Shown here: positions 222 to 25,620 of the stretch, piece by piece
Position numbering within the stretch: the stretch's first letter is position 1
How the letters are laid out: each line of letters opens with the position of its first letter
Origin: Endomicrobium sp.
GTDB taxonomy: Bacteria > Elusimicrobiota > Endomicrobiia > Endomicrobiales > Endomicrobiaceae
Reading direction: 5' to 3'
Length of the DNA stretch: 36,512 bases
Assembly: GCA_031273645.1 (NCBI GenBank)
Contig: JAISRM010000144.1
Span: 1 to 36,512, forward strand
Translations under genes and position numbers: made by a program
Notes under the pieces: generated by a model
What the model was told of the DNA's origin: nothing
Databases searched by the model: none
What the model saw: only the letters and a program-made list of their open reading frames with translations

Positions 222-1025
222 AACCGTCCTTCCCGTGAAAGCGGGACAGACTTCGTCTGTGTTTTGTCATTGCCGCGAAAGCGGGACAGACTTCGTCTGG
301 TTTGTCATTCCCGCGAAAGCGGGACAGACTTCGCGTCTGTGGTTTGTCATTCCCGTGAAAACGGGAATCCATGTTTACTAAAAAATTCTTTTTACATCTC
401 GTCTTTAAAAGAAATAATGTTAGAAGCTATATTAATATTAAAAATGGATTCCCGTTTTCACGGGAATGACAGACTTTGAAAAACAATTAACAAAACAGCC
501 TTTGTCTGTGTTCATAAAACAGGCGAAGCCTGTCCCGTGAAAACGGGAATCCATGTTTACTAAAAAATTCTTTTTACACCTCGTTTTCAAAAAAAATAAT
601 GTTAGAGGCTATATTAATATTAAACATGGATTCCCACCCGATAAAAACACTCGGGTGCAGGCTGCTTAGGAAGAACAAATATTAAAAACATGGGAATGAC
701 GGACTTTGAAAAACAATTAACACAACAGCCTTTGTCTGTGTTCATAAAACAGGCGAAGCCTGTCCCGTGAAAACGGGAATCCATGTTTACTAAAAAATTC
801 TTTTTACACCTCGTCTTTAAAAGAAATAATGTTAGAAGCTATATTAATATTAAAAATGGATTCCCATTTTCATGGGAATGACAGACACAAACAAAACAGG
901 CGAAGCCTGCAGCCTTTGGTTGTTTTATAAAAACAGACGAAGTCTGACTAATATTAAAAGCGGATTTCAGTTTTCACGGGACAAAACAGAGGCAGACTTG
1001 TCTTCTATAAAACAGACGAAATCTG
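222..1025. repeat. Intergenic mosaic repeat cluster R1 (hairpin modules, MITE-like units, ~230-bp tandem duplication)
   Basis: Read directly. Three tandem GTCATT(G/C)CCGCGAAAGCGGGACAGACTTCG(C)GTCTG units lie at about 265-342, followed by a 127-bp inverted-repeat element (345-471). Two near-identical ~230-bp units follow (461-690 and 691-883), then CAGRCGAAGYCTG mini-palindromes up to 1025. The same modules recur in nine other intergenic gaps. Confidence 0.9.
345..471 (+). mobile_element. 127-bp MITE-like non-autonomous element with perfect 28-bp terminal inverted repeats
   Basis: TGTCATTCCCGTGAAAACGGGAATCCAT (345-372) is the exact reverse complement of 444-471, around an AT-rich 71-bp core. 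Near-identical copies occur at 761-883 and, inverted, at 9872-9998. No transposase is in the window, so mobility is inferred only from copy number and the TIRs. Confidence 0.5.
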
Positions 1026-1075
1026 AAAATTGACTTTCAACTGAAAAAATATTAGAATTAACAATCGTTTTTTAC

Positions 1076-1147
1076 GGCGGCGTAGCTCAGGGGTAGAGCA
1101 GAGGACTCATAAGCCTTTGGCCGTAGGTTCAATTCCTACCGCCGCCA
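1076..1147 (+). tRNA. tRNA with CAU anticodon (elongator tRNA-Met, or tRNA-Ile2 if C34 is lysidinylated)
   Basis: 72-nt cloverleaf: acceptor GGCGGCG/CGCCGCC, D-arm GCTC-AGGGGTA-GAGC, anticodon loop CT-CAT-AA, 5-nt variable loop, T-arm GTAGG-TTCAATT-CCTAC, discriminator A. No CCA is encoded and a T-run follows. G1-C72 is paired and the anticodon stem lacks three G:C pairs, so it is not an initiator. Confidence 0.9.
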
Positions 1148-1278
1148 TTTTTTCGCAGCTGCCGAAATGCCGAAATCTTGCAATTCCCTGAAAATATATT
1201 TTGCCGCTTGTCTTTGTTTAGCTGTCCTCATTTTATAAAATCATTTAACATTTCAATATAAAGAGCTACACTTTTCTT

Positions 1279-3435
1279 ATGCTTTTTACTCTTTTATTTA
1301 TCTCCGGTTTTTGCGCGGCTTTAATTCATTTATTATTTTTTAGAGAACTGCTTACGGCGTTTCAGTCTTTAGACATTATCGCCGGTTTTTTTGCGTTCCA
1401 CGTAATTTTATCTTTTGCCGCCGGCGCGCGCGCTGGAGTTGCTTTTATACGGTCAAAAAAAGACGAAAACGTTTTGTTTTTTTCAATTTGTTCTCTTATA
1501 ATTCTTTTTGTGGCTTCGCTTATTTTTATTTATGAAATAAGAAATATTTTAAACGCCGCTTTAGGCGGCGCGGTTTCTTTAAAACTTTCGTTTTCTTTTA
1601 TATTTGCCGCCGTGTTTCCGGTTTCTTTTGCCTACGGGTTTATTTTTCCCATGCTTGCGCAGTTTTGGCAGCGGGTAAAAAAATCTTCCGGTTTGAAATT
1701 CGTTTTTCTCTTCAGCGCCGCCGGTTTTGTCGTCGGCGGACTGGCATATTCTTTATTTTTATACGAGGCTCTTTCTTTAAGAATAGCCGCGCTTATAATA
1801 ATTTTGACCGTTGTTTCTTTGGGATCCCTTTTAAAAAGCGAAAAGAAAAAAGTTTTTCTTGCAGCAATTGTCTTATCGCTGCTGTTTTTGTCCGACACCG
1901 ATTTTATAGTCAGGGCGGACAAAAAACTTCTTGAAGAAAGTTTTAAGCCGGCTGTAGTAAAAGATTATTCAAATTCGGCTTACGGCCGGACGGCGCTGGC
2001 GGCTCAAAACAACGAATATTTTCTTTTGTCCGACAACGCGCTTTTATTGTCTTATCCCGACAACGACGTTTTAAATTCCGAAGATTTCGGGCATATTCCG
2101 ATTTTGCACGTTAAGAATCCTAAAAACATTTTAGTGATAGGTTTGGGCGCAAAATATCTGCCGATGCTTCTTTCATATAATGTCGCAAAAATAGATTATG
2201 TCGAGCCTGACGCCGCGCTAATGGCAGTGATGAAAAATAATATAAAACGTTTCGGCTACGTTTTTAACGATAAAAGGCTGCGCATACATAATCTTGACGC
2301 GCGCGCTTTTTTAAAAAAATCAACAGAGCGCTACGATCTTATTTTGTCGGGAATGCCGTCTCCGCTGAATTTGCGTTTAAATTCGTTTTATACAAAAGAA
2401 TTTTTTGCCGAAGTAAAAAAACGTCTTGCTGAAAACGGATTTTTTGCTTTGAAACTTCCGGGAAGAATGGCTTTTTCAAGCTTCATAATGGCCGAAATTA
2501 ATTTGTCCGTTTCGGAAGCTTTGCAAAGCGTTTTTAACAATGTGAAAATAATTCCCGGAACGCAAAATATTCTGATAGCTTCAGACGGCGCTATGCCTTA
2601 CCGCATGCACATAAAAAAGCGCCTTGCCGACGTTCAGGAAACGACTCTTGTTATGTCGAGATATTATCTTGACGACAAAATGGATACGGAAAAAACAAGA
2701 TGGCTTGTTAAAGAGCTCAAAAAAGTTAAAAACGACGATTTGTTAAACGCAGACTTAAACGGCCGCGCGATGATGCGCTCTTTTTTACATTGGCAGTCCG
2801 GGTTTTCGCCCTATCTCAGCCTTTTTATAGATAAAACTATACGATATTCTTATCTTTTGATAATTGCCGCCGCCGGATTTTTTTTCTTTTCAAAATCTCT
2901 TTACAAAACGACGTCTTTTACGGCAAGTTTAAGCGCTTTTTGGCTTTTATTTGCCGCATTGTTTGGCGCGCGCGCTTCAAATATAGGAATCTTCAAATGG
3001 GCGGCCGTATTTGCCGCTCTGTTTGTTTTTGGAATTATTTCGGCTTATCTTTGCCGCAAAATCGTCAACGCAAATTTATCTTTAAATAAAAGAATGTTTA
3101 ATTGCGAACTGTTTTCAATTTTGCTTATTGCGTTTTGCTGCGCTTTTTTTAAAGTTTTCTCTATTTCTCCGACCGTTCTTTCTTTTCTTGTTTTCGGAGC
3201 CGGTTTTGCGGCGGCAATGGAATTTCTCTGTCTTTACGAAATCGCGGTTTTTTTCGGACGCGCCAAATCGGCTGCAATATCGTTATACGCTTTTGCCGGC
3301 GCGCAAACCGCATGTCTGCTTGGGGGAAGTTTTCTTATATTGGCATGGGGAATAGAATATTCCCTGTTTTTCATATTTTTCATGAAATTTCTGATATTTT
3401 GCCGCTGGACCGACATAGGCAGAAGCGGCCTTTAA
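1279..3435 (+). CDS. Polytopic membrane protein with central spermidine-synthase-like (SAM-MTase fold) domain
   Basis: 718-aa ATG ORF. About 7 N-terminal and about 6 C-terminal hydrophobic helices flank a soluble core with the motifs ILVIGLGAKYL, VEPD, LDARAFL, YDLILSGMPSP and FYTKEFFAEVKKRLAENGFF, which line up with SpeE-type motifs. Confidence 0.6.
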   Translation: MLFTLLFISGFCAALIHLLFFRELLTAFQSLDIIAGFFAFHVILSFAAGARAGVAFIRSKKDENVLFFSICSLIILFVASLIFIYEIRNILNAALGGAVSLKLSFSFIFAAVFPVSFAYGFIFPMLAQFWQRVKKSSGLKFVFLFSAAGFVVGGLAYSLFLYEALSLRIAALIIILTVVSLGSLLKSEKKKVFLAAIVLSLLFLSDTDFIVRADKKLLEESFKPAVVKDYSNSAYGRTALAAQNNEYFLLSDNALLLSYPDNDVLNSEDFGHIPILHVKNPKNILVIGLGAKYLPMLLSYNVAKIDYVEPDAALMAVMKNNIKRFGYVFNDKRLRIHNLDARAFLKKSTERYDLILSGMPSPLNLRLNSFYTKEFFAEVKKRLAENGFFALKLPGRMAFSSFIMAEINLSVSEALQSVFNNVKIIPGTQNILIASDGAMPYRMHIKKRLADVQETTLVMSRYYLDDKMDTEKTRWLVKELKKVKNDDLLNADLNGRAMMRSFLHWQSGFSPYLSLFIDKTIRYSYLLIIAAAGFFFFSKSLYKTTSFTASLSAFWLLFAALFGARASNIGIFKWAAVFAALFVFGIISAYLCRKIVNANLSLNKRMFNCELFSILLIAFCCAFFKVFSISPTVLSFLVFGAGFAAAMEFLCLYEIAVFFGRAKSAAISLYAFAGAQTACLLGGSFLILAWGIEYSLFFIFFMKFLIFCRWTDIGRSGL

Positions 3436-3612
3436 TTGCGCGCAATGCTTTAGAAAAACTATAATAAAATAATAACGCTGAACAATTGCATAAAGCGCGT
3501 TAAAATTGTAAAATAAATGTAAAATTTTTAAAAGTTATTGATTTTTGCGGCTTTTACCGCAGCTAATTTTACCCTGCAGCAAGGGTTATATGTCAACAAT
3601 TAAGAGGTGTCA

Positions 3613-6600
3613 GTGAAGAAACTAATATGCGCGTTTTGTTTTTTTACTTTTTCGTTTGCTTTATTTTCAGATTTGCAGGCTTATGCCGCAGAGCAGGCCG
3701 GCAAATATACTATATCGGGATTTGTTACAGACAAAGAGGGAGTCGGGATTTACGATATTGAAATTAAGCTTACCGGAGATTCTACAGACATTAAACGCAC
3801 CGATACGACCGGATATTACCGTTTTGACGATATAGACGATGGTTCAAAAGTCGAGCTTGCGGCAAAAAAAGAAGGTCATTCGATAGCTCCTTCCGTATTT
3901 AGAATAAGCAGTTTAAATTCAAACAGAACGATAAATTTTAAAGCCGTTAAAATTGCGGACATTGCATCTAAAAAAGAAGAATCGTCCGCTTCTTTATCTT
4001 CCGCTGCAAAAGCCGGCGAAACAAAATCTGATGCAAAAGCCGTCCAGAACCCTGCCTATGAAATAAGCGGTAAAGTAAGTTATTACGCTTCAGGGATTAT
4101 CGGAGTAAAAGTTTCGGTAAATAACGACAAAAAGCTTACCGCTGTTACCGATTCTAACGGAAATTATTCAATAAAAGGCGTTAGAGCCCAAGAAGGCGCG
4201 GTTGTGTCTTTTTCTAAAGAAGGTTTTGTTTTTAATCCTTCCGAAAGCGACGTGTCCTCTATAAATTCCGACATTGTAATAAACTCCGAAGCCGCGCAGA
4301 CAACGTTTAAAATTTCCGGCGTAATAAGCGAGGGAAAAAATCTTATAAAAGACGTTTCGGTAAGAATTACAAACGGCGTGGATAATTTTTCCGCTCTTAC
4401 CGATTCAAAAGGCTATTACGAAATTATAGGTCTTCCCCACGGCAGCAATCTTTTTATAGCGGCGTTTAAAGACGAAGTCGTAATCACTCCGCTTAAGCTT
4501 GTTATAAATAAACTCGACGGCAATAAGACGGTAAATTTTAGCGCCAATGTGCGCAAACTAAAAATTTCCGGAACCGTTTTTGATGAAAACGGCGATCCGG
4601 TAAAAAACTCAAAAGTGGTTTTGAATACTCCTTTTGATTCTTTTGAAGCCGAGACAAATGCAAAAGGCGCTTATTTATTTAATCGCGTTCCGTCGGTGTT
4701 TTCTTTCAGCATAAAGGCGTCTAAAGAAGGCTATGAAGACAGCCAAGAAATAAATTCAGAGCCTCTTGATTCCGATAAAATCATAAATTTAACTATGATT
4801 GAAAGCGACGACGCAATTGAAACTAAAGCGGCTAAGAAGAAAAAAGAAAGGCGCGTAAAGAAAGACGCAGAGCCGCAGCCGCCAGAAAGCGACGAACCCA
4901 AAACGCCCTTAAAAAAAGTAAGCGTCAGAAAAATCGCGCGTCCTGCGCAAGACGAGCCGGTTAAAACCGAGAAAGCAAAACTTTCCAAAGAAAAGATCGC
5001 AAAAGAAAAATCCGAAGAAAAAACTGTCCGTAAAGAAAAAAATGCCGAAGCTTTAAAACAAAAAAATAAAAAAATGAAAACCGTGCGCATAAGAGGAACC
5101 GTTTCGGGCAAATTGGCGGCTCTTTCCGGCGTGGAGCTTACTTTAGAACCCGGCGGATATTCGGTAAAAACCGACGACAAAGGAAAATACGTTTTTGAAG
5201 CGATACCCGAAAATTCAAGATATGTTTTAAAACCTTATCTGCAAGACGTTAATTTTGAGCCGGAAAACGCAGTTTTTGAAGACGTATCTTCAAATATAAT
5301 TCAGGATTTTACTCCCTATGTAACGATTGAAGGAGAAACGTTTTTTGAGGGGAAATATATTGACGAAGTCTCTATAAATCTTAACGCAGCGCCTGCGGCG
5401 CTCAGCAATAAATTTGGGAAATTTAAAATTTCTCCGGTGGAGTACGGTTCTTCAGTAAGTTTGGGCGCTGAAAAATCCGGATACGCTTTCTATCCTCCCG
5501 TTATAAGAATACCGTCTATAACTAAAAATTACGACAAACAAAACTTTATGGCGGCCTTTTCCGTCTCCGGAAAAATTTCTCTTTACGGCGGCAACAACGG
5601 TTTAAGCAACATAGAACTTGAAGTTACGGGAAACACACAAACTTCCGTCTTTACGGATTACGGAGGAAATTATTATATTCAAGGGCTTGAAGCCGGAGGA
5701 ACTTTTACCGTAACTCCTAAAGCCGGAGGTTATAAATTTACGCCGGCAAGCAAAGACTACGCTGCGCTTAAGGGAAATTTTGTCAATCAGGATTTTACGG
5801 CCGTTAAAGAAACTTATACGATAACCGGCAACGTAAATATAGGCGGCAAGCCCGTAAGAAACGCCGTGGTAAACATTACTAAAAGAACTTTAAAATATTT
5901 TACCGACGACGAAGGCAAATTTGAAATAAGAAACCTCGATTACGGCGGACCTTATACATTAAGCGTGCAAAGCCCGGGATATTCTTTTAAGCCGATTGTA
6001 ATTGAAATTTTAAAAGAAAATACGGCCGTCGAATTTTCAACGGATTTGTCGCTTTCGGGAATCGTAACTTCAGGCGGCAAACCCGTAAAAGACGTTATTG
6101 TTGACGTAAACGGCAGCAAATACAAAACGGATGAAAACGGAAAATATACGATAAAAGGTCTTAAATACGGCGGCAGCTACTTAGTGAGTCTGCTTTCAAA
6201 AGGCATGATGTTTGAACCTTTCCACAAAGAATACAATAATCTCAGACAAAGCGTTCTCGACGAATCTTTTGAAGCTTCTTTGATAATAAGCGGCCGCATA
6301 ACTTACGCAGACTCGGCTTTTGAAGGCGCCGCAGTGGCTGTAAGAGGAATCTCTGAAGTTTATAAAACCGACGCAAACGGATATTATACGATAAGCGCAG
6401 CCAAAGTCGGCAGGGATTACACCGTTGAAGTTTCAAGTCCGGGATATAAATTTTTGCCGGCAAAAAGAGAATATAAAGATTTAAGCGAAAGCAAAATGTC
6501 TGAAAATTTTCAAGCCGTTTCTTTAGGCTATCGCGTCAAAGGCAAAGTTACCGCCGAAGGCCGCGCGCTAAAGCGCGTTCAGGTGATTATAGAAGGCTCT

Positions 6601-7653
6601 TCAAAAGCGCAAACTTATACCGACGACGAAGGATATTATATTTTCAAAGGGCTTGCTTCCGACAAAAAATATATGCTCACCGTGGTCAGCAAAAATTATC
6701 AATTTGAAAATCCCAGCGGAATAATAATGAATCTTACCGGAGATACGGTAATAAATCTTGAATTTGGGAAAGTAACTTCTCCGGAGCCCGTTGCGCAAAA
6801 TTTAAACGAATCTCTTAAACATGAAAATGAGCAAACAGAGGCAAAAGAAAAATTTTTCACCGTCGAAGGCATCGTAACTGTTAACGATATGCCCGCCAAA
6901 GACGTCGCCGTAAAAAGCGGATCTTTAGAGACTTTTACAGACGAAGACGGCAAATACAGCTTGTCTGTTTCCGCCGGAGACAATATAACGGCGGAGCCTT
7001 ATCTTGACGGATATTCTTTTACTCCCGAAAAAATTTCTTTCAGCGGCGTAAGCTCAAACAAAACGGGTATAAATTTTTCGGGCGCGCAAACTAAGTTTTA
7101 TAGCGTTGAAGGGTCAATCGTAAACGATGAACTGCGCGGAGTAAAAGGCGTTTTGGTAAAAATTCTTAACGATTCGTCGACAGTCGCAACCGATTCGTCG
7201 GGATTTTATAAAATAGCCGGATTAAAGCATAATGAAAAAAACATTATCGCGTTTGAATCAGACAGGTATGATTTTTATCCCCAATCTTTAGAAATTACGC
7301 CTTTAGACGACGTAAAAGCCGGAGATATTTTTGCTTATCCCAAAAAGCTAAAAAGGCCGCAGCTTTTTATATACGGAGCTTCAAATTCGCAAGTTAACGC
7401 TTCTTTGGCAAAAGAAATTGCAGTAGTTATGGTTGCCGACGAAGACGGAAAAGTTTCCGGACAAATAATCGACGAAAACGACAATTCCGTTTTTGAATTT
7501 AACGACGATCTTTTGGCAAATGCGCCCTCAGCTGCAAAATGGAATATGGTTTCCTCTTCTTCAAGAAAAAAAGTTCCTTCCGGAGAATATTCGGTAATTT
7601 TAAACGGAGCCGGATTTAAAGACGAAACCGTAAGTTTTAAAATAATAAGATGA
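3613..7653 (+). CDS. Secreted 1346-aa surface protein: 13 tandem carboxypeptidase-regulatory-like (CarboxypepD_reg-type) beta-sandwich repeats, a Lys/Glu-rich linker and a FlgD-Ig/T9SS-CTD-like C-terminal domain
   Basis: The ORF is open from GTG 3607, but AAGAGG (3602-3607) sits 5 nt before GTG 3613, so 3613 is preferred. The signal peptide is KKLICAFCFFTFSFALFSDLQAYA. An ~80-aa unit with the pattern (Y/F)x(I/V)SGxV...V.V......TDxxGxYxI.GL..G..Y.V....GY.F.P repeats 13 times. The charged linker is aa 400-492 (4804-5082). The C-terminus reads WNMVSSSSRKKVPSGEYSVILNGAGFKDETVSFKIIR. Confidence 0.8.
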   Translation: MKKLICAFCFFTFSFALFSDLQAYAAEQAGKYTISGFVTDKEGVGIYDIEIKLTGDSTDIKRTDTTGYYRFDDIDDGSKVELAAKKEGHSIAPSVFRISSLNSNRTINFKAVKIADIASKKEESSASLSSAAKAGETKSDAKAVQNPAYEISGKVSYYASGIIGVKVSVNNDKKLTAVTDSNGNYSIKGVRAQEGAVVSFSKEGFVFNPSESDVSSINSDIVINSEAAQTTFKISGVISEGKNLIKDVSVRITNGVDNFSALTDSKGYYEIIGLPHGSNLFIAAFKDEVVITPLKLVINKLDGNKTVNFSANVRKLKISGTVFDENGDPVKNSKVVLNTPFDSFEAETNAKGAYLFNRVPSVFSFSIKASKEGYEDSQEINSEPLDSDKIINLTMIESDDAIETKAAKKKKERRVKKDAEPQPPESDEPKTPLKKVSVRKIARPAQDEPVKTEKAKLSKEKIAKEKSEEKTVRKEKNAEALKQKNKKMKTVRIRGTVSGKLAALSGVELTLEPGGYSVKTDDKGKYVFEAIPENSRYVLKPYLQDVNFEPENAVFEDVSSNIIQDFTPYVTIEGETFFEGKYIDEVSINLNAAPAALSNKFGKFKISPVEYGSSVSLGAEKSGYAFYPPVIRIPSITKNYDKQNFMAAFSVSGKISLYGGNNGLSNIELEVTGNTQTSVFTDYGGNYYIQGLEAGGTFTVTPKAGGYKFTPASKDYAALKGNFVNQDFTAVKETYTITGNVNIGGKPVRNAVVNITKRTLKYFTDDEGKFEIRNLDYGGPYTLSVQSPGYSFKPIVIEILKENTAVEFSTDLSLSGIVTSGGKPVKDVIVDVNGSKYKTDENGKYTIKGLKYGGSYLVSLLSKGMMFEPFHKEYNNLRQSVLDESFEASLIISGRITYADSAFEGAAVAVRGISEVYKTDANGYYTISAAKVGRDYTVEVSSPGYKFLPAKREYKDLSESKMSENFQAVSLGYRVKGKVTAEGRALKRVQVIIEGSSKAQTYTDDEGYYIFKGLASDKKYMLTVVSKNYQFENPSGIIMNLTGDTVINLEFGKVTSPEPVAQNLNESLKHENEQTEAKEKFFTVEGIVTVNDMPAKDVAVKSGSLETFTDEDGKYSLSVSAGDNITAEPYLDGYSFTPEKISFSGVSSNKTGINFSGAQTKFYSVEGSIVNDELRGVKGVLVKILNDSSTVATDSSGFYKIAGLKHNEKNIIAFESDRYDFYPQSLEITPLDDVKAGDIFAYPKKLKRPQLFIYGASNSQVNASLAKEIAVVMVADEDGKVSGQIIDENDNSVFEFNDDLLANAPSAAKWNMVSSSSRKKVPSGEYSVILNGAGFKDETVSFKIIR

Positions 7654-8747: not shown

Positions 8748-9178
8748 AAAAAATTTTAGTTTTAAACGGTCCAAATATCAATATGTTAGGCCTGAGAGAG
8801 CCGGGCATTTACGGTAATTTTACTTTGTCCGACATAGAAAAAGCGATTTTACATCTTGCCAAAGAGCTTAATGTTGAAGTCGAATTTTTTCAATCTAATC
8901 ACGAGGGCGAAATTGTCGATAAAATACAAAGCGTTAAAGATAAAGTTTCGGCAATTATAATTAATCCCGCTGCTTTTACCCATACTTCCGTCGCCATAAG
9001 GGACGCTTTAGCGGCTATAGCTCCCATGCCTGCAATCGAAGTTCATATATCAAATGTGTATGCCAGAGAAGAGTTCAGACATAAATCTTATACGGCAGGC
9101 GTGTGCATAGGGCAAATAGCGGGTTTTGGTTTAGACGGATATTTGTTTGCGTTAAAAAAATTGAATTCTCTTATATAA
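8744..9178 (+). CDS. aroQ: Type II 3-dehydroquinate dehydratase
   Basis: 144 aa with ILVLNGPNINMLGLREPGIYG, QSNHEGEIVDKIQ, IINPAAFTHTSVAIRDAL and EVHISNVYAREEFRHKS. ATGA overlap with aroB. Confidence 0.93.
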   Translation: MKKILVLNGPNINMLGLREPGIYGNFTLSDIEKAILHLAKELNVEVEFFQSNHEGEIVDKIQSVKDKVSAIIINPAAFTHTSVAIRDALAAIAPMPAIEVHISNVYAREEFRHKSYTAGVCIGQIAGFGLDGYLFALKKLNSLI

Positions 9179-9233
9179 TAAATATCCTGAGGTATTTTTC
9201 AATCTTGATTTAAAAAAATTTATAAAGAAAAAA

Positions 9234-9259
9234 AGCCCCGAAGAAAAATCTTCGGGGCT
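9234..9259. terminator. Bidirectional intrinsic terminator shared by convergent aroQ and cspA
   Basis: A 10-bp perfect stem AGCCCCGAAG / CTTCGGGGCT with a 6-nt loop. It is flanked by an A-run upstream and T-rich sequence downstream, and lies between two convergent stop codons. Confidence 0.8.
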
Positions 9260-9277
9260 TTCATGTTTTTGGTTAGG

Positions 9278-9481
9278 TTAGATCTTTTTTATGTTAGCTG
9301 CTTTAGGACCCTTGTCTGAATTGACAACTTCAAATTCAACACTGTCGCCCTCTGCTAATGATTTGAAACCTTCCGACTGAATAGCCGAATAGTGCGCAAA
9401 AACATCGCCTGAACCGTCATCATTGGAAATAAATCCGTAACCTTTCTGGTCGTTAAACCACTTCACTTTGCCTTGTGCCAT
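9278..9481 (-). CDS. cspA: Cold-shock protein (CspA family, S1-like OB fold)
   Basis: 67 aa, [18 protein letters not shown]...DVFAHYSAI (RNP1/RNP2-type motifs). The RBS AAGGAG lies 9 nt upstream. Confidence 0.95.
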
Positions 9482-9575
9482 TTGTTACAACTCCTTGTTT
9501 TCTTATCCGCTTAATGCAGATAACTAAATCGCTTTAAGCTTAAGCTTAAGCTGAACTTTTGAAGTTCGTGAAATT

Positions 9576-9604
9576 ATTTAATAAAATAATAAACAAAATG
9601 TCAA
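9576..9604 (-). promoter_or_regulatory. Candidate sigma70-type promoter of cspA with a ~90-nt structured leader
   Basis: The minus strand reads TTGACA (9604-9599), a 17-nt spacer, then TTAAAT (9581-9576). The leader contains a GAACTT-CAAA-AGTTC hairpin and the triplet AAGCTT AAGCTT AAGCTG (9536-9553). Confidence 0.5.
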
Positions 9605-9630
9605 GCGGAATTTTAATTATTGTTTTTTCA

Positions 9631-10136
9631 AGGTTGTCATTGCCGAAAGTATTAATGATCTTTTATTCCTAAGCAGCCTGCGCCCGAATGTTTTTATCGG
9701 GTGTAAAAAGAATTTTTTAGTAAACATGTGTTTGTCATTCCCGTGTTTTTAATATTTGTTCTTCCTTAGCAGCCTGCACTCGAGTGTTTTTATCGGGTGG
9801 GGATCCATGTTTAATATTAATATAGTTTCTAACATTATTTCTTTTCAGACCGTGTCTGTTTTATTTGTGTCTGTCATTCCCATGAAAATGGGAATCCATT
9901 TTTAATATAAATATAGCTTCTAACATTATTTCTTTTAAAGACACAATGTAAAAAAAATTGTTTAGTAAACGTGGATTCCCGCTTTCGCGGGAATGACAAA
10001 CCAGACTGCGTCTGAGAGAATTTTTTAGCAAACTTGTATCCCACTTTCGTGGGAATGACAAAACGGCTCAAGCTGCCAATCCCATAAAAACAGACGAAGT
10101 CTGTACCATAAAACAGGCGAAGCCTGATGAAGTCTG
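9631..10136. repeat. Intergenic mosaic repeat cluster R2
   Basis: Same modules as R1, mostly in inverted orientation. It includes the C module (9665-9700 and 9760-9800), a 127-bp element (9872-9998), the hairpin TCCCACTTTCGTGGGA (10039-10054), and CAGACGAAGTCTG / CAGGCGAAGCCTG palindromes (10090-10126). Confidence 0.9.
9872..9998 (-). mobile_element. Inverted copy of the 127-bp MITE-like element
   Basis: TGTCATTCCCATGAAAATGGGAATCCAT ... ACGTGGATTCCCGCTTTCGCGGGAATGACA. It is collinear with the reverse complement of 345-471. The two terminal hairpins carry different but internally compensated stems. Confidence 0.5.
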
Positions 10137-10200
10137 GGCTGCTAAGTTGTTGCCTGCAGTAAGCTGCGGGGGGGATATGTTAAAAATAAAGGAAATTAAA

Positions 10201-11250
10201 ATGAAAAATAAAATTAATGAACTTGCGCAAAAGAATTCGGCAGACAACATTTTGTTTACGGGCAAGGCGGAAACTTTTTACCTTTCCGCAGCGGAGTTCG
10301 ACGGGTTTTGGATTCTTGCTTTAAAAGACGAAATATACGCGCTATGTTCAAAGATGACGCAAAATCAGGTAAAAGAATTTTTTAGCGGACAGGACGTAAA
10401 AATTTATGCGGGAGATTCTTTAAGCAAATCGGTTGTTGAAATTTTAAAAGAAAAGCGCGTTTGCGTTTTGACGGTTGATTCCAAATATATGAGCGCTTCC
10501 GATTTTCTTCTTATAAAAAGCAGGCTTGAGGCGGAAAATATCAGCCTGTTTGTAAAACACGCAATTACGGACGCAATAAGAATTGTAAAATCTGCCGCCG
10601 AAATTGAGAAGTTAAAAAAGGCGTGTTCAATAGTTTCGGAAGTATGCGACCAAATAAGAGAAGAAGTGAAGCCCGGTCTTTGCGAACTTGACATACATTA
10701 CAGAATTCTCGAACTTTTTGCAAAAAATAAAGTTAAAGAAAGTTTTACTCCTATAGTTGCGGCAGGCAAAAATTCCGCAAACCCTCATCATGCGAGTTCA
10801 AATTATAAAATATCGCAAAACGATATAATAATGACGGATATCGGCTGCATATATGAAGGGTACTGTTCTGATTTGACACGCACATATTTTTTAGGTAACA
10901 TTAATGGCGTTCAAAAAACGGTTTGGGACACGGTAAAAAACGCGCAAAGCGCGGCGATAAACGAAATTAAAGCCGGCCGGCCTATTTGTCAAGCTGACGC
11001 AGCCGCAAGAAAAATAATAGAAGCGGCCGGATATAAAGACAATTTTATTCATACTACCGGGCACGGAGTAGGTATAGAAATTCATGAAATGCCTTCGCTT
11101 GCTGCAAACGCCGAAGGTGTTTTTTTAACGCATATGGCGGTTACCGTTGAGCCCGGCATATATATTGAAGGCAAATTTGGAGTCAGGATAGAAGACACTG
11201 TTTGCGTAACGCAATCCGGATGCGAAATTTTAACTTCTGCAAAATATTAA
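10201..11250 (+). CDS. pepP: M24B family Xaa-Pro aminopeptidase/dipeptidase
   Basis: Metal-ligand motifs DIGCIYEGYCSDLTRT, HTTGHGVGIEIHEMP and VEPGIY..GVRIEDTV. The ORF is open from TTG 10147, but that stretch is repeat sequence. ATG 10201 has AAGGA 5 nt upstream; ATG 10177 is an alternative. Confidence 0.85.
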   Translation: MKNKINELAQKNSADNILFTGKAETFYLSAAEFDGFWILALKDEIYALCSKMTQNQVKEFFSGQDVKIYAGDSLSKSVVEILKEKRVCVLTVDSKYMSASDFLLIKSRLEAENISLFVKHAITDAIRIVKSAAEIEKLKKACSIVSEVCDQIREEVKPGLCELDIHYRILELFAKNKVKESFTPIVAAGKNSANPHHASSNYKISQNDIIMTDIGCIYEGYCSDLTRTYFLGNINGVQKTVWDTVKNAQSAAINEIKAGRPICQADAAARKIIEAAGYKDNFIHTTGHGVGIEIHEMPSLAANAEGVFLTHMAVTVEPGIYIEGKFGVRIEDTVCVTQSGCEILTSAKY

Positions 11251-11308
11251 CAGGCAAAGCCTGCAGACAAAATTTAAAATAGACGAAGTCTAAAACAGGC
11301 GAAGCCTG
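11251..11308. repeat. Two mini-palindromes of the repeat family between pepP and efp
   Basis: CAGGCAAAGCCTG (11251-11263) starts directly after the pepP stop. CAGGCGAAGCCTG lies at 11296-11308. Confidence 0.85.
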
Positions 11309-11323
11309 GGGAGATAAGCAACG

Positions 11324-11881
11324 ATGATTTCAACATCTGATTTCAGAAACGGATTAAATATTTTGGTTGACGGCGAGCCTTATCAAATCACGTGGTTTCA
11401 AAATCACAAACCGGGCAAAGGCGGCGCGGTAATGAGAGTAAAACTCAGACATCTTAGGAAAGGCGGAACTATAGAACGCACTTTTAAATCCGGCGAGAAA
11501 TTTGAAGCTTTAAGCGTTACCAGACAAAAAAAGCAGTTTCTTTATAAGGAAGGCGACAATTTCAATTTTATGGATTTAAACACTTACGACCAAATAAGCG
11601 TGTCTCCTGAAATTATCGGAGAACTTGCCAACTATTTAACCGAAAACAGAGAAGCCGACGCCATATATTTGGAAAGCGAACTTATAGGCGTAGAAATTCC
11701 GGCAATTATAGAAATGACTATTGCCGAATCCGAGCCCGGAATTAAAGGCGATTCCGTTTCAAATATGACAAAAATGGCAAAACTTGAAACCGGAGCCGAT
11801 ATACGCGTGCCTTTATTTATTAAGGAAGGCGACAGAATAAAAGTTGATACAAGAACAGGCGAATATGTGGAAAGAGTTTAA
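11324..11881 (+). CDS. efp: Translation elongation factor P
   Basis: 185 aa, MISTSDFRNGL...VDGEPYQI..FQNHKPGKGGAVMRVKLRHL. It shows the conserved KPGKG loop and the conserved pepP-efp-accBC synteny. Confidence 0.95.
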   Translation: MISTSDFRNGLNILVDGEPYQITWFQNHKPGKGGAVMRVKLRHLRKGGTIERTFKSGEKFEALSVTRQKKQFLYKEGDNFNFMDLNTYDQISVSPEIIGELANYLTENREADAIYLESELIGVEIPAIIEMTIAESEPGIKGDSVSNMTKMAKLETGADIRVPLFIKEGDRIKVDTRTGEYVERV

Positions 11882-11968
11882 ACCGGCAAAAAAATTCTTT
11901 AACGCTTTCTGCGCGCATTTGAGCTTGTGATTTTTATTTTATATTTTTAGTTTTAACCGGAGCATATT

Positions 11969-12397
11969 ATGAACCCTCAGGAAATCAAAGAGTTTTTAAA
12001 ATCTATAAAAGACACGGATATTGAAGAACTTCAATATCAAAGCGGGAGCGATTCATTATATTTTAAAAAAAGCGACGTTGAAGCTTTTGTCGCAGAAATC
12101 AAAGAACCCGTAAAAGTTGAAGAAGTTAAAATCAAAGAACCTCCAAAGCCTGCATATATAGCTATAAAGTCGGCTATGGTAGGCACTTTTTCAAGCGCGT
12201 CAAATAATGATAAACCTCCTTTTGTAAGAGAAGGTTCAGAAGTTGCGCCCGGTAAGAAAGTCGGGCAGATAGAAGCGATGAAAATCATAAAAGACGTAAA
12301 CTCAAAAGTTAAAGGCAAAATAGTAAAGGTATGCGTTTCAAACGGCGAAAGCGTCGAATACGGACAGGAATTGTTTTTGTTAGAACCTGCCAAATAA
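11969..12397 (+). CDS. accB: Acetyl-CoA carboxylase biotin carboxyl carrier protein
   Basis: 142 aa. The C-terminal biotinyl domain has the biotinylation motif GQIEAMKIIKDV and the tail GESVEYGQELFLLEP. Confidence 0.92.
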   Translation: MNPQEIKEFLKSIKDTDIEELQYQSGSDSLYFKKSDVEAFVAEIKEPVKVEEVKIKEPPKPAYIAIKSAMVGTFSSASNNDKPPFVREGSEVAPGKKVGQIEAMKIIKDVNSKVKGKIVKVCVSNGESVEYGQELFLLEPAK

Positions 12398-12445
12398 AGC
12401 TGCCGGCGGCCGTCAATTGCAAATTGCCGTTTTCAAAGAGGAACT

Positions 12446-13795
12446 ATGTTCAAAAAAGTTTTGATAGCAAACAGAGGCGAAATAGCGTGCAGAATAATAA
12501 GAGCGTGCAGGGAACTGGGCGTTAAAACGGTCGCCATTCATTCCGAAGCCGACAGAGACTGCATGCACGTAAAACTTGCCGATCAGTCGGTTTGCGTCGG
12601 GCCGGCAAGCGCGTCGGAAAGTTATTTAAATATTCCAAGCATAATTGCCGCAGCGGAAATTACCGGAGCCGACGCCATACATCCCGGATACGGTTTTCTG
12701 GCGGAAAACATGTATTTTGCCGAAGTTTGCCAAGCCTGTAAAATACATTTTATAGGTCCTAAAAAAGAATCCATAGAAAAAATGGGCGACAAAATAGCCG
12801 CAATTGAGCTTATGAAAAAATCCGGCGTGCCGGTAGTTCCGGGTTCAGACGGCCCTGTTAACGCCGAAGATCCTAAAATTTTTGCTCTTGCCGAAAAAAT
12901 AGGGTATCCCGTTATAATAAAAGCCACAGCCGGCGGCGGCGGAAAAGGCATGAGGATAGTTGTTTCTCACGAAACGCTTGCCAATTCCGTTATTATGGCG
13001 CAGACGGAAGCGAAAGCGGCTTTCGGCAATTCCGACGTCTATATGGAAAAATATATTGAAGAGCCGCATCACATAGAATTTCAAATTATGGGCGACAAAT
13101 TCGGAAACGTCGCTTATCTTCCGGAAAGAGACTGCTCCATACAAAGAAGACATCAGAAACTTGTCGAGGAAAGCCCTTCTCCTCTTATAAGCGAAACTCT
13201 CAGAAAAAAAATGGGCAAAGCCGCAAAAAATGCGGCCGCCGCCGTCAAATACGTTACCGTAGGAACTGTGGAATTTCTTGTTGACAAAGAAAATAATTTT
13301 TATTTTATGGAAATGAACACAAGAATTCAAGTTGAGCATCCGGTAACGGAAATGATAACCGGCATAGATCTTGTGAAAGAACAAATAAAACTTGCCGCAG
13401 GCGAAAAACTTTCCGTTACTTCCGAAAAAATAAAAATTTTAGGGCATGCCATAGAATGCAGAATTAACGCAGAAGATCCCGATAAAGATTTTATTCCTTC
13501 TCCCGGAACTATAGGCAAACTTTACCTGCCCGGCGGAATGGGCATAAGAATTGACTCTCACGTTTATTCCGGTTACACGATTCCTCCTTTTTACGACAGC
13601 CTTATAGCTAAAATTATCGCTTTAGGTTCAGACAGAGACGAAGCTATAGCAAAAATGTCAAGAGCTTTAAAAGAAGTTGAAATAGAAGGCATTAAAAACA
13701 CTTCGCCGCTGCACGGAAAAATTATGGCCAACGAAAAGTTCCGCAAAGGAAGCGTTACTACAGATTTTTTGCCTAAATATATTTTCGGCAGGTAA
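12446..13795 (+). CDS. accC: Acetyl-CoA carboxylase biotin carboxylase subunit
   Basis: 449 aa with [53 protein letters not shown] and [13 protein letters not shown]. Confidence 0.95.
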
Positions 13796-13840
13796 GTTTT
13801 GCGCATGAAACGCATTTTAGAAATATCATAAAAAATCAAA

Positions 13841-13871
13841 ACGGCGGACTTAAACGATCTGCCGTTTTTTT
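13841..13871 (+). terminator. Intrinsic terminator downstream of accC
   Basis: Stem ACGGCGGA / TCTGCCGT (one mismatch) with a 9-nt loop, followed by a run of 7 T (13865-13871). Confidence 0.7.
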
Positions 13872-13922
13872 ATTGCCGGGCTATTTTGTATAATGGTATA
13901 AAATTTTTAAATAAGAGGGTTT

Positions 13923-14495
13923 ATGCAAAATCATGAGATTATCAAAAATTTGATCAGCGAAAGCATTGAAGCCAAACGCATGATGTTTGACCAATCGGAA
14001 CTTATTGAATCTATCGCCGCAAAAATTATTGAAAGCTATAAAAATGGACGCAAAACCATAGTTGCCGGAAACGGCGGCTCGGCGGCAGACGCTTTGCATT
14101 TTGCGGCTGAAATGGTAGTCCGTTTTGAAAAAAACAGAAAGGCTTTGCCGTCGATTGCCCTGTCGGAAAACGTATCTACAATCACGGCCGCCGGAAACGA
14201 TTTCGGCTTTGACCAAAGTTTCAGCCGACAGGTTGAAGCTTTTGCCCAAAAAGGCGACGTTTTTATCGCAATTTCAACAAGCGGAAATTCGCCAAACATA
14301 ATTAAAGCTGTGGAAACCGCAAAAGCGCTTGGCGTTTTTGTCATAGGCTTGACAAATTCCGACGGCGGAAAAATGAAAGAAATGTGCGATATATGCTACT
14401 GCGCGCCGTCAAAAATCACAGCCCGCGCCCAAGAATGCCATATAACGCTTATACATATTATTTGCAGGCTGATAGAAACGGCAGTTGAAGAATAA
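13923..14495 (+). CDS. gmhA: D-sedoheptulose-7-phosphate isomerase (SIS domain)
   Basis: 190 aa with GNGGSAADALHFAAEM, ISTSGNSPNI and QECHITLIH. TATAAT at 13889-13894 and AAGAGGG lie upstream. Confidence 0.9.
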   Translation: MQNHEIIKNLISESIEAKRMMFDQSELIESIAAKIIESYKNGRKTIVAGNGGSAADALHFAAEMVVRFEKNRKALPSIALSENVSTITAAGNDFGFDQSFSRQVEAFAQKGDVFIAISTSGNSPNIIKAVETAKALGVFVIGLTNSDGGKMKEMCDICYCAPSKITARAQECHITLIHIICRLIETAVEE

Positions 14496-14519
14496 AAAAT
14501 CTTAGCTGTTTGTCCGTTT

Positions 14520-14720
14520 TGTCATTGCCGCGAAAGCTGAAATCCATGTTTACTAAAAAATTCTCTCAGACAGCCTTCGGCTGTTTTATAAAAACAGACG
14601 CAGTCTGAAAAGAAATAATGTTAAAAAACTATATTAATATTAAAATGTTTCTCCGCCCGATAGAAACACTCGAGTGCAGGCTGCTAAGGAAGAAAGAATA
14701 TTAAAAACGCGGGGATGACA
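14520..14720 (+). mobile_element. Degenerate 201-bp composite MITE-like element between gmhA and hldC
   Basis: TGTCATTGCCGCGAAAGC...GGGGATGACA. It is collinear with 23853-24052 (H, A, P-pair insert and C modules), but the termini are eroded. Confidence 0.5.
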
Positions 14721-14810
14721 AACTGAAAGATATTTTGAGACGACGCCTGAATACAGACGCAAATGTTTAGCGTAGAAATCTCCTTTTTAAAATAGCGGGG
14801 ACTATAAAAA

Positions 14811-15293
14811 ATGAAAAAAGCGTTGACTTGGCAAAAGATGCAAAAAGAAGTTAAAAGACTTCAAAAAAACGGAAAAAAAGTCGTTTTTACAAACGGTTGT
14901 TTTGATTTACTTCATTTGGGGCATACGTCCCTTTTTGAAAAAGCAAAATCTATGGGCGACATTTTAATAGTGGCGATAAATTCGGACAAATCTTTAAGAT
15001 GCCTCAAAGGTCCTAAAAGGCCGCTTGTGGGAGAAAAAGACAGAGCGAAACTTCTTCTTACTTTAAAACCGGTTGATTACGTTGTTGTTTTCGGACAGCA
15101 AACCCCTTACGAACTTTTAAAAAAACTTTGCCCCGACATTTTAGTTAAAGGCGGAGACTATAAACTTTCGGAAATAGTAGGAAGAGAATTTGTTAAAAAG
15201 GTGTATAGGTTCCCGTTTATAAAAGGCAAATCCACAACGAACTTAATTAATACTATACTAGAACGCTACGGCAAAGCGGCAAAACCGCTTTAA
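14811..15293 (+). CDS. hldC: D-glycero-beta-D-manno-heptose-1-phosphate adenylyltransferase (RfaE domain II only)
   Basis: 160 aa with VVFTNGCFDLLHLGHTSLFEKAK, IVAINSD, LKGPKRP, ILVKGGDY and STTNLI. These align with the C-terminal half of E. coli HldE. No kinase domain is present. Confidence 0.9.
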   Translation: MKKALTWQKMQKEVKRLQKNGKKVVFTNGCFDLLHLGHTSLFEKAKSMGDILIVAINSDKSLRCLKGPKRPLVGEKDRAKLLLTLKPVDYVVVFGQQTPYELLKKLCPDILVKGGDYKLSEIVGREFVKKVYRFPFIKGKSTTNLINTILERYGKAAKPL

Positions 15294-15350
15294 TTAATAC
15301 TATAAGCCAAACGCTACGATAAGAAAATGATTTTGCGCGCAACAAGACGC

Positions 15351-15929
15351 AGTGTATCAGCGCTAACTGTCAGCAGTTAACTGATTTTTAAACTTGCAGG
15401 CTTCGCCTGTTTTATTTGTGCCCGTCATTCCCGTGAAAACGGGACAGACTTCGTCTGTTTTATGGGATTGGCGGCCAGTGTCTGTTTTGTTAATTGTTTT
15501 TCAAGGTCTGTCATTCCCATGAAAATGGGACAGGCTTCGCCTGTTTTATGGAACGCAGCCAGTGTCTGTTTTGTTTGCGTCTGTCATTTCCATGAAAATG
15601 GAAACCGCCTCTCGCTGTCATTCCCATGTTTTTAATATTTGTTCTTCCTTAGCAGCCTGCACTCGAGTGTTTTTATCGGGTGGGAATCCATGTTTAATAT
15701 TAATATAGCTTCTAACATTATTTCTTTTCAGACTGCGTCTGTTTTTATAAAACAACCGAAAGCTGTAAAAAGAATTTTTTAGCAAACTTGGATTCCCATT
15801 TTCATGGGAATGACAAACCGGACGCAGTATGTCCTGAAAGTTTTTATGTGGGTTGCAGACTGCGTCTGTTTTGTTTTTGTCTGTCTTTCCTGAAAGTATT
15901 AATGTAGGTTGGCTGCAGCAAGCTGCGGG
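15351..15929. repeat. Intergenic mosaic repeat cluster R5
   Basis: Contains an S module (15354-15395), three H hairpins each fused to CAG(A/G)CTTCG(T/C)CTGTTTTAT, a 200-bp composite element, and the palindromic box CTGCAGCAAGCTGCGGG (15913-15929). Confidence 0.9.
15616..15815 (-). mobile_element. 200-bp composite MITE-like element (inverted orientation)
   Basis: TGTCATTCCC (15616-15625) and GGGAATGACA (15806-15815) are the termini. The interior is the reverse complement of the H-A-C layout seen at 531-700 and 23853-24052. Confidence 0.55.
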
Positions 15930-18090: not shown

Positions 18091-18942
18091 CAGCAGGCTT
18101 CGCCTGTTTTTAAAGATTAATTGTTTACTATTGTTTTGGTTGTCATTATGACCTGCGCGCAGCAAGCTGCGCGGTATCAGCGTTAACTGTCAGCGCAAAC
18201 TATCAGCGATAGCTGTCAGCGGTCAACTGATTTTTTAAACATGGATTTCCACCCGATAAAAACACTCGAGCGCAGACTGCTAAGGAAGAACAAATATTAA
18301 AATCACGGGAATGACAGGCACAAAAAAAACAGACGGAGTCTGCAGCCTTCAGCTGTTTTATAAGAACAGATGCGGTCTGAAAAGAAATAATGTTAGAAAC
18401 TATATTAATATTAAAAATGGATTCCCTTTTTCACGGGAATGACAGGCACAAAAAAAACAGACGAAGTCTGTTCCGCTTTTGCGGCAATGACAACTTGAAA
18501 AACAGGCGAAGCCTGATTTTTAACTGCCATAATAAAAATAGAAGTTATCAATAGACAGAGAGCTTCAAACACAAAAAAACAGGCGAAGCCTGCAGCCTTC
18601 GGCTGTTTTATGAGAACAGACGCGGTCTGAAAAGAAATAATGTTAGAGGCTATATTAATATTAAACATGGATTCCCGTTTTCACGGGAATGACAGACCTT
18701 GAAAAACAGGCGAAGCCTGCAGATGAAGTCTGTTCCGCTTTTGCGACAATGACAACTTGAAAAACAGGCGAAGCCTGATTTTTAACTGCCATAATAAAAA
18801 TAGAAGTTATCAATAGACAGCAAGCTTCAAACACAAAAAAACAGGCGAAGCCTGCTGTGGATGATTAGGGAAAAAGGACATTTAGACTTTCGGTAATGAC
18901 AGTTAAGCTGCGCCTTGCGGCAAGCTGCGGGGTACAGGTTAA
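18091..18942. repeat. Intergenic mosaic repeat cluster R6, the largest, with a ~250-bp tandem duplication
   Basis: Contains a P hairpin (18094-18106), a palindromic box (18153-18174), an S module (18175-18240) and a C module (18241-18315). Two tandem units follow (18343-18592 and 18593-18854), each ending in the 78-nt F module. Confidence 0.92.
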
Positions 18943-24266: not shown

Positions 24267-24320
24267 ATTAATGGGTTAAGAAAAAGAAGGATTGAAAATC
24301 CAAATCCAAGCGGGCGGGGG

Positions 24321-25334: not shown

Positions 25335-25404
25335 ATTATATAAATAAACCATGCAAAAAACCATTTTTAATTTGAAAAACGTAATTTTGTGAACGGCAAC
25401 GCGG

Positions 25405-25620
25405 ATCAACCCGCCCGATAAAGACACTCGAGCGCAGGCTGCTAAGGAATAAAAAATATTAAAAATGCGAAAATGACAAGCTGCGCTTGTCGTATCATCA
25501 TATTTCGCGGGAATGACAACAAAGATTTTGGAATGACAACAAAGATTCGTACTGTCGTTTCATAAAACAGACGAAGTCTGCATAAAACAGGCGAAGCCTG
25601 CATAAAACAGACTTCGCCTG
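25405..25620. repeat. Intergenic mosaic repeat cluster R9
   Basis: Contains a C module (25409-25475), the direct repeat GGAATGACAACAAAGATT x2 (25509-25548), and three 20-nt tandem units CATAAAACAG(A/G)C(GAA/TTC)G(T/C)CTG (25561-25620). Confidence 0.9.

Follow-up and report, generated by a model that had tools for sequence, protein, structure and literature searches.

What are the small hairpins that recur in the intergenic DNA of an Endomicrobium contig, and do they act as RNA or as DNA? We examined a stretch of 36,512 nucleotides (nt) from Endomicrobium sp. (contig JAISRM010000144.1, positions 1 to 36,512 of the forward strand), hereafter the window, in which a hairpin that we call the H-module carries a GAAA loop on a stem whose sequence differs from copy to copy. 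The H-module is a member of a family already described under the names CGTC-1 REP, dRS3, NTS and SRM; the Endomicrobiaceae host with its dense arrays is new. In our assessment it is probably a CGTC-tagged REP of family 1 that has expanded in Endomicrobiaceae intergenic DNA and is cut as single-stranded DNA (ssDNA) by a nuclease of the Ssn family. The structure of the family was described in 2013 and recognition of its ssDNA hairpin by a nuclease was shown in 2025, and the present case does not by itself amount to a new kind of biology.

The original prediction, made from the letters of the sequence, named five versions of the stem around the loop. All five are present: TCCCGC-GAAA-GCGGGA at 309-324 (plus strand) and 9977-9992 (minus strand), TCCCGT-GAAA-ACGGGA at 351-366, TCCCAT-GAAA-ATGGGA at 15515-15530, TCCCAC-GAAA-GTGGGA at 10039-10054 (minus strand) and TTCCAT-GAAA-ATGGAA at 15588-15603. 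The tally of copies was too low, since the window holds 15 perfect hairpins of the TCCCNN type with a 6-bp stem and a GAAA loop. The sequence TCCCNNGAAANNGGGA, with at most one mismatch, has 18 matches in the window against 0.09 expected from dinucleotide-preserving shuffles. A covariance model, built from 21 aligned window copies, recovered 23 simple copies and, besides these, copies with a large loop insertion. The H-modules of the window comprise 23 simple and 5 expanded-loop copies, all of them intergenic.

An intact H-module is 27-28 nt long and directional: a tag TGTC (CGTC once), the arm ATTCCCNN, the loop GAAA, the arm NNGGGAAT and a tail CCA. Both DNA and RNA folds of intact copies give an 8-bp stem. 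What was first described is a 16-nt core with a 6-bp stem; intact copies have the 8-bp stem ATTCCCNN/NNGGGAAT and asymmetric flanks, the directional tag and tail had been overlooked and the known family had gone unrecognised. Both flanks are kept, as TGTC-ATTCCCNN-GAAA-NNGGGAAT-CCA, in 9 simple copies, and the others are tail-less (8), tag-less (2) or decayed (4). The tag TGTC or CGTC is found in 19 of the 21 aligned copies, and CCA stands directly after the stem in the 9 intact copies, the 2 tag-less ones and one decayed copy (14520-14547). Eight copies have lost the 3' AT and CCA, and in seven of these a hairpin CAGRC-N3-GYCTG abuts the core; near 225-372 the tag, the core and this second hairpin form a tandem repeat with a unit of 38-40 nt. 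The stem had been described as always complementary and the loop as invariant. Complementarity holds in most copies, with one uncompensated inner pair each at 229 (T.G), 18421 (G.A) and 24077 (C.A). The loop is GAAA in 21 of the 23 simple copies and AAAA in two decayed ones, and a 47-nt insert replaces it in five others. Decayed copies stand at 269, 14524, 23779, 18465 and 18727.

Two larger arrangements are built from these units. Five 75-nt units consist of the tag and 5' arm, a 47-nt insert with its own small hairpin, and the 3' arm and tail; a reading of these elements as deletions of the hairpin was dropped once both stem arms were seen, which places the insert in the loop. Three 127-bp inverted pairs, with their tags outward, surround a conserved 71-nt AT-rich spacer (345-471, 757-883 and 9872-9998). 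The copies are as follows, with the basis of each call in brackets.

345-372, plus strand: intact unit TGTC-ATTCCCGT-GAAA-ACGGGAAT-CCAT, left arm of the pair 345-471 (SRM pattern match; covariance model, 47.6 bits)
444-471, minus strand: intact unit, GT/AC stem, right arm of the pair 345-471 (SRM pattern match, covariance model)
856-883, minus strand: intact unit, AT/AT stem, right arm of the pair 757-883 (alignment, covariance model)
9872-9899, plus strand: intact unit, AT/AT stem, arm of the inverted pair 9872-9998 (alignment, covariance model)
9971-9998, minus strand: intact unit TGTCATTCCCGCGAAAGCGGGAATCCAC, 2 mismatches against the 28-nt Neisseria NTS (SRM pattern match, covariance model)
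15788-15815, minus strand: intact unit, AT/AT stem (alignment, covariance model)
18417-18444, minus strand: intact flanks, one uncompensated pair, G.A (alignment)
18667-18694, minus strand: intact unit, GT/AC stem (SRM pattern match, covariance model)
23853-23880, plus strand: intact unit, AT/AT stem (alignment, covariance model)
225-252, plus strand: tail-less copy, CAGAC hairpin in place of the 3' AT and CCA, T.G wobble in the stem (alignment)
265-292, plus strand: tail-less decayed copy, ATTGCC (alignment)
303-330, plus strand: tail-less copy, GC/GC stem, contains the 309-324 hairpin (alignment)
527-554, plus strand: tag-less copy, GCCTG in place of GTCAT (alignment)
757-784, plus strand: tag-less copy, left arm of the pair 757-883 (alignment)
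10033-10060, minus strand: copy with AC/GT stem and altered tail, contains the 10039-10054 hairpin (alignment)
14520-14547, plus strand: decayed copy (alignment, covariance model)
15423-15450, plus strand: tail-less copy, CGTC tag (alignment)
15509-15536, plus strand: tail-less copy, AT/AT stem, contains the 15515-15530 hairpin (alignment)
15582-15609, plus strand: double change in the outer pair (TTCCAT/ATGGAA), contains the 15588-15603 hairpin (alignment)
18465-18492, minus strand: decayed copy, AAAA loop (covariance model)
18727-18754, minus strand: decayed copy, AAAA loop (covariance model)
23775-23802, plus strand: decayed copy (alignment, covariance model)
24073-24100, minus strand: tail-less copy, uncompensated C.A pair (alignment)
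627-701, minus strand: 75-nt expanded-loop copy (covariance model, 22.4 bits over the whole model)
9733-9807, plus strand: 75-nt expanded-loop copy (both arms flank the 47-nt insert)
15616-15690, plus strand: 75-nt expanded-loop copy (both arms flank the 47-nt insert)
18242-18316, minus strand: 75-nt expanded-loop copy (both arms flank the 47-nt insert)
23978-24052, minus strand: 75-nt expanded-loop copy (both arms flank the 47-nt insert; covariance model)
345-471, no strand assigned: 127-bp inverted pair with tags outward, an "HH dimer" in the terms of Di Nocera that also fits the REPIN definition (sisters 757-883, 9872-9998, opposite orientation)

The 47-nt module occupies the exact position of the GAAA loop and holds a hairpin, CACTCGAGTG..CGGGTG, together with the motif AGCAGCCTGC, which is similar to a DNA uptake sequence of the Kingella type. 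The module has the look of a nested insertion in the hairpin loop.

To which family do these units belong? In CGTC-1 REPs the tag is CGTC or TGTC, the first two of the 8 stem pairs are A-T and T-A, the loop has 4 nt and the tail is CCA; the repeats are multi-copy, chiefly extragenic, and mostly arranged as tags-outward HH dimers with conserved spacers of 20-100 bp (Di Nocera et al. 2013, PMC3733652). The window H-modules have every one of these structural traits: tag, stem, loop, CCA tail and HH dimers with a 71-nt spacer. CGTC-1 corresponds to dRS3 in Neisseria and was reported from five phyla, Elusimicrobia not among them, with "no dedicated transposase" (PMC3733652). Clusters of CGTC-1 were rare outside Neisseria and Wolbachia (PMC3733652), whereas they dominate in the window. 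In Neisseria, dRS3 is ATTCCC-N8-GGGAAT, and the arrays of Neisseria intergenic mosaic elements (NIME) that it forms were thought to be Neisseria-specific (PMC1797815). The window arrays likewise consist of ATTCCC-N8-GGGAAT around short AT-richer spacers and stand beside accessory genes. They differ in their Elusimicrobiota host, in having unrelated spacers and in containing two other small hairpin modules, and no DNA-uptake-sequence system is implied for them.

The NTS is a directional 28-nt repeat, CGTCATTCCCGCGMAVGCGGGAATCYRG, that is bound and cut by SsnA, a GIY-YIG protein of 94 amino acids (Chenal et al. 2025, PMC11893778). The window copies resemble the NTS/SRM-Ssn system in their GTC tag, ATTCCC..GGGAAT stem, C after the stem and intergenic clusters. 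They differ in that the tag is TGTC rather than CGTC, that GT/AC and AT/AT stems occur beside GC/GC, and that GAAA is fixed; moreover, Elusimicrobiota are not named in the main text of PMC11893778 and the window contig is without an ssn gene. No window copy matches the canonical NTS (CGTCATTCCCGCGMAVGCGGGAATCYRG) with at most one mismatch: the closest copy differs from it at 2 positions and the others at 4-7. The window H-modules are therefore NTS-like, not canonical NTS. The SRM pattern, HGTCWYN(0-2)YYVSBRHN(0-5)WNVSBRGN(0-2)RNCYNB, matches 4 window copies against 0.01 expected in simulated sequence.

We then ask whether pairing itself is under selection. At pair 11-18 of the alignment of 21 window copies, 9 distinct sequences have GC, 7 have AU and 1 is unpaired; at pair 12-17 the counts are 10 for UA, 5 for CG, 1 for UG and 1 unpaired; a CG to UA double change in an outer pair is seen in one window copy. 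The covariation score of this alignment is 0.245 compared with 0.145 after shuffling. None of 500 shuffles reaches 0.245, and slid partners give at most 0.09. The proposed covariation of the stem pairs is thus borne out by the two loop-proximal pairs, which exceed all shuffles and all slid-partner controls.

The same question can be put to copies elsewhere. The pattern TGTCATTCCC-N8-GGGAATCCA, with 19 fixed bases, was searched in metagenome and viral collections and is found in at least 120 stretches in each, on contigs of 31-71% GC with unrelated flanks, which makes the element very widespread. The copy statistics rest on 273 locus-unique copies among the matches listed. In these the two pairs left free by the pattern are 97.4% Watson-Crick, compared with 84% after shuffling (maximum 86.4%), and where the 5' dinucleotide is other than GC, 35 of 45 copies are fully compensated (GT/AC, AC/GT, AT/AT, TC/GA, CT/AG). 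The suggested selection on pairing is upheld by this excess in largely independent copies together with the covariation in the window. Could the hairpins nevertheless be chance palindromes, or a few amplified founder variants whose pairing is unconstrained? Within the window only four inner-stem types occur and all differ by transitions, so that few independent events would be needed there. Against this stand the enrichment of 18 matches over 0.09 and the recurrence of the same compensated types in at least 240 unrelated contigs with GC content from 31% to 71%. We regard this explanation as refuted by these two results and give it next to no weight.

Across the family the loop varies, and it is tied to one strand. 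Read from tag to tail, the loop of the 273 copies is G (96%), N, A (97%), R (97%); GAAA accounts for 29% of the loops, 144 of the 273 end in G, and TTTC, the reverse complement of GAAA, occurs in 2. One strand of the hairpin is therefore meaningful, because in nearly all copies the loop keeps one orientation with respect to the tag. The non-Watson-Crick cells on the tag strand (2 G.T and 7 A.C) are too few for a strand test. Among the metagenome matches listed, the commonest N8 is GCGAAAGC (46 of 144), and d(GCGAAAGC) has been described as an unusually stable DNA mini-hairpin. The near-fixed GAAA loop of the Endomicrobiaceae lineage may reflect hairpin stability or a founder effect.

Does the hairpin act in RNA? 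On such a reading the H-module would work in transcripts as a stem with a GNRA tetraloop: it could stabilise 3' ends, terminate transcription or serve as a site at which a protein or RNA docks. In favour of it, the copies lie between genes and form stable RNA folds (-9 to -14 kcal/mol), and many REPs were held to be likely transcribed (PMC3733652). Furthermore, the 127-bp pair aligns end to end with the Rfam family WsnRNA46 (RF02625, Wolbachia sRNA 46), a small RNA whose model rests on two tagged hairpins in inverted orientation around a spacer; at 42.3 bits the match stays under the gathering score (65.3), the stem sequence differs, and the pair is not a member. The only match in the window at Rfam gathering thresholds is a tRNA-Met. 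Both strands fold to the same 8-bp hairpin with near-identical energy as DNA or as RNA, so folding energy cannot pick the strand or the chemistry.

The orientation of the copies is more informative. Nearly all lie within a stretch in which every gene is on the plus strand, and a few in the convergent gap after it, yet the tag strand is plus in 13 copies and minus in 10. About four in ten copies would thus show a UUUC loop in such transcripts. In other genomes, where the genes on both sides run the same way, the hairpin shares their strand in 59 cases and opposes it in 41, and orientation is mixed around phage head genes. The orientation bias of GAAA over TTTC that had been named as a check is in neither case clear. 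GAAA is not confined to a transcribed strand as a GNRA loop, being present on both strands of the window, and the loop of the family is G-N-A-R rather than GNRA, just over half ending in G. In a terminator-like scan of the window only 2 H-module copies pass, and the signal belongs to the separate CAGRC hairpins; the H-module was accordingly rejected as an intrinsic terminator. SsnA acts on forward-strand ssDNA only, and on neither RNA nor double-stranded DNA (PMC11893778). Taken together, the orientation, the terminator scan, the non-GNRA loops and the SsnA biochemistry argue against a role in transcripts, which we consider quite unlikely. The other possibility first raised, a DNA hairpin recognised by a structure-specific enzyme, agrees with the SsnA experiments on this family (PMC11893778).

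Several Rfam plant microRNA families (MIR6445, MIR4208, MIR2606 and others) also give sub-threshold matches to the 127-bp pair (339-477, 325-489). The consensus of MIR6445 reads like cauuCCuC...GGGaauGa, and REP-like or bacterial sequence may underlie some of these families.

Which enzyme might read the hairpin? We searched 323 environmental loci, retrieved via the hairpin alone, with a profile of small GIY-YIG open reading frames (ORFs) in six frames at E-values up to 1. An ssn-like GIY-YIG ORF of about 90 amino acids adjoins the hairpin in 11 of these loci. In 9 of the 11 the gene is bracketed: about 33 nt separate the end of the upstream hairpin from the start codon, and 15-45 nt lie between the stop codon and an inverted downstream hairpin, with the tags outward. 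This hairpin-ssn-hairpin geometry is that of the 127-bp pairs of the window. Published ssn genes are likewise often bracketed by the motif, and of the genomes that contain over 200 motifs, 81% encode an Ssn (PMC11893778). Cutting by SsnA depends on three bases 5' of the stem and binding on the C 3' of the stem, while the loop is dispensable; the meningococcal SsnA-NTS pair limits integration of transforming DNA (PMC11893778).

The intergenic units make up mosaic arrays and tags-outward 127-bp pairs, much as the mosaic elements of Neisseria do. We consider the following course of events the most probable. When single-stranded, during DNA uptake, replication or repair, the tag strand would fold into the hairpin, and a nuclease of the Ssn family, small and with a single GIY-YIG domain, would bind it and cut a few nt upstream. 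Such an enzyme would recognise the pairing of the stem, the GTC tag and the C that follows the stem but not the letters of the loop, so that changes in the stem would survive only if compensated. The partner enzyme is taken here from the family, because no ssn gene lies on the 36.5-kb contig; the host presumably encodes an Ssn that acts on the window copies. As for the outcome, incoming or recombining ssDNA might be kept in check, or the repeat might spread selfishly.

A number of points weigh against this proposal. A profile hidden Markov model, run in six frames at E-values up to 1, found no ssn-like ORF on the 36.5-kb contig, nor in the 22 Endomicrobia loci syntenic with it. The tag and tail that SsnA needs are both kept in only 9 of the 23 simple copies, so that many copies would be poor substrates; those without tag or tail may be inert relics. 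The published SRM pattern does not cover copies with an AT/AT stem, an enzyme indifferent to the loop does not account for a near-fixed GAAA, and the energy model separates neither the two strands nor DNA from RNA. Finally, the doublets of Neisseria have been assigned to a RAYT transposase by Bertels and Rainey (bioRxiv 10.1101/2021.07.10.451892). A lineage with several stem variants around a fixed GAAA would offer a natural test set for whether Ssn reads the structure of the stem or its sequence.

The assignment to RAYT deserves a closer look, as it concerns how copies multiply. Under it, the inverted pairs would be REPINs, and their copying would fall to a domesticated HUH tyrosine transposase (RAYT) that recognises the ssDNA hairpin. 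The 127-bp pairs fit the definition of a REPIN, two opposed REPs less than 130 bp apart, and Bertels and Rainey treat the Neisseria doublets of ATTCCCGCGCAGGCGGGAATC as REPINs that belong with a Group 2 RAYT, the loss of which accompanies REPIN decay (bioRxiv 10.1101/2021.07.10.451892). The window arrays also share with REPIN-RAYT systems and the E. coli REP/BIME elements the short extragenic hairpins, the inverted pairs, the mosaic arrays and, at the level of the family, the reading of ssDNA by a dedicated enzyme. However, those systems have a GTAG tag and an HUH tyrosine transposase, whereas the CGTC/TGTC family is linked to a GIY-YIG nuclease; the GTAG cut by characterised RAYTs is missing from the H-module, whose tag is TGTC or CGTC. 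No Y1-transposase domain was found in the ORFs scanned in the window, and CGTC REPs were without transposase association in the survey of Di Nocera et al. (PMC3733652). In a census of proteins near the hairpin, the recurrent non-phage neighbours, as judged by sequence, are Ssn and IS110 (both confirmed by Pfam), no RAYT profile having been run on those loci. RAYT remains a live and non-exclusive rival for the multiplication of copies, albeit an unlikely one.

The IS110 neighbours bear on another explanation, in which the hairpins persist mainly as targets of IS110-family (DEDD) recombinases or filamentous phages, the arrays being scars of insertion and recombination. In Neisseria, dRS3 is a target at which filamentous prophages integrate by means of their own transposase (PMC1797815). 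IS110-family transposases (PF01548 and PF02371) are encoded in 8 of the hairpin-derived loci (L003, L026, L029, L098, L107, L108, L116 and L234), and the hairpin lies within a few hundred nt of the gene in 7 of the 8; L107 is without a strict-pattern copy. These IS110 genes are consistent with the role of dRS3 as a phage integration site, and in the window the 47-nt insert sits exactly in the loop of five copies. On the other hand, 7 of the 8 loci, all except L234, an unrelated metagenome contig of 42% GC, look like Neisseria filamentous prophage contigs and like one related group (near-identical transposases, GC 45-50%). The contig of 36.5 kb carries no recombinase or prophage and, as a whole, no ssn, RAYT or IS110 gene, and a target role accounts neither for the spread to many copies nor for the conservation of tag and tail nor for the ssn linkage. 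We judge this explanation very unlikely. The Neisseria-type prophage contigs carry the form cGTCATTCCC-ACGAAAGT/GCGCAGGC-GGGAATCCAG.

The census also recovered head-module genes of tailed phages near the hairpin. The 27-nt hairpin is common in tailed-phage contigs (L004-L393), tens to hundreds of nt from portal, terminase (gpA) and capsid genes and in either orientation. On phages it may be a target, a decoy or a hitch-hiker.

Returning to Ssn, the geometry shared by the window pairs and the bracketed genes permits a bolder thought, doubtful as it is: the 127-bp tags-outward pairs could be non-autonomous miniatures of the hairpin-ssn-hairpin cassette, and Ssn could be the missing mobiliser of CGTC-tagged REPs. 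The shared geometry, on which this idea stands, fits it and does not in itself demonstrate mobility. If true, it would represent a GIY-YIG-based form of transposition guided by an ssDNA hairpin, and the Endomicrobiaceae lineage would record a recent burst of it, including small modules inserted exactly into loops. As a separate matter, integron attC sites and CRISPR repeats were set aside without formal testing: neither an integrase nor a cas gene is present, and spacing and flanks disagree with both.

Is the host truly one of the Endomicrobiaceae? The biotin carboxylase of the window (AccC) is 85-88% identical to proteins of Endomicrobium metagenome-assembled genomes (MAGs), and the gene order aroB-aroQ-pepP-efp-accB-accC-SIS-cytidylyltransferase is common to the window and Endomicrobium sp. 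Gx485_bin123, with 63-90% amino acid identity. The GC content of the window is 39.7%. In view of the AccC identity and the conserved gene order, the host is of the Endomicrobiaceae despite the Neisseria-like dRS3 consensus and the AGCAGCCTGC motif that resembles a DNA uptake sequence. The H-module hairpin was not found in the syntenic loci of 22 Endomicrobia relatives, and the lineage-specific spacer has no match in a scan of the viral collection. A protein search with an ORF derived from the repeats matched, apart from the window, a single JGI contig of 2.9 kb. A sister variant with a 9-nt loop, CGTCATTCCCGA-N9-TCGGGAATCCA, occurs in two Endomicrobia/Elusimicrobia MAG loci, at 2471-2558 and 8620-8652 of L124 and 4456-4488 of L134, in the form (C/T)GTCATT(C/T)CCGA-N9-TCGGGAATCCA and including one inverted pair with a 22-nt spacer. 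Endomicrobia thus carry the family at a low level, with an expansion in the lineage of the window.

The dRS3/NTS (CGTC-REP) hairpins and their mosaic arrays, once seen as a hallmark of Neisseria, are thereby extended to Elusimicrobiota. The Endomicrobium group is known for symbionts of the termite gut. A host of this type fits the reported enrichment of SRM motifs in host-associated bacteria (PMC11893778).

Several further features of the window may be mentioned. A second and commoner family of small hairpins, CAG[GAC]C-N3-G[CTG]CTG, has at least 45 sites (e.g., 247-259, 520-532, 10114-10126, 18503-18515 and 25588-25600), many of them with TTTTAT behind. Here, too, the stems show covariation (CAGGC/GCCTG, CAGAC/GTCTG, CAGCC/GGCTG), and many copies abut H-module cores directly. 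These hairpins score as terminator-like, yet many oppose the local direction of the genes. A strong bidirectional terminator-like hairpin of 13-14 bp lies at 9231-9262, just past aroQ, and the minus strand of 9230-9555 gives a sub-threshold match to the Rfam cspA thermoregulator (34.9 bits against 78).

Between the repeat arrays lie a Pif1-like helicase and an AbiEi/AbiEii toxin-antitoxin pair (16821-18089, 22253-23661), which have no tblastn counterpart in the syntenic loci of the relatives; their placement recalls the link of Neisseria arrays with variable genes. An ORF of 2541 amino acids (25640-33265, minus strand) and an overlapping one of 169 amino acids (33259-33768, minus strand) have no Pfam match. 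Both GC skew and AT skew flip sign near 24 kb, where gene orientation turns from plus to minus (24000-36512 of the window), and the flip could be a replication landmark or a mere effect of strand composition.

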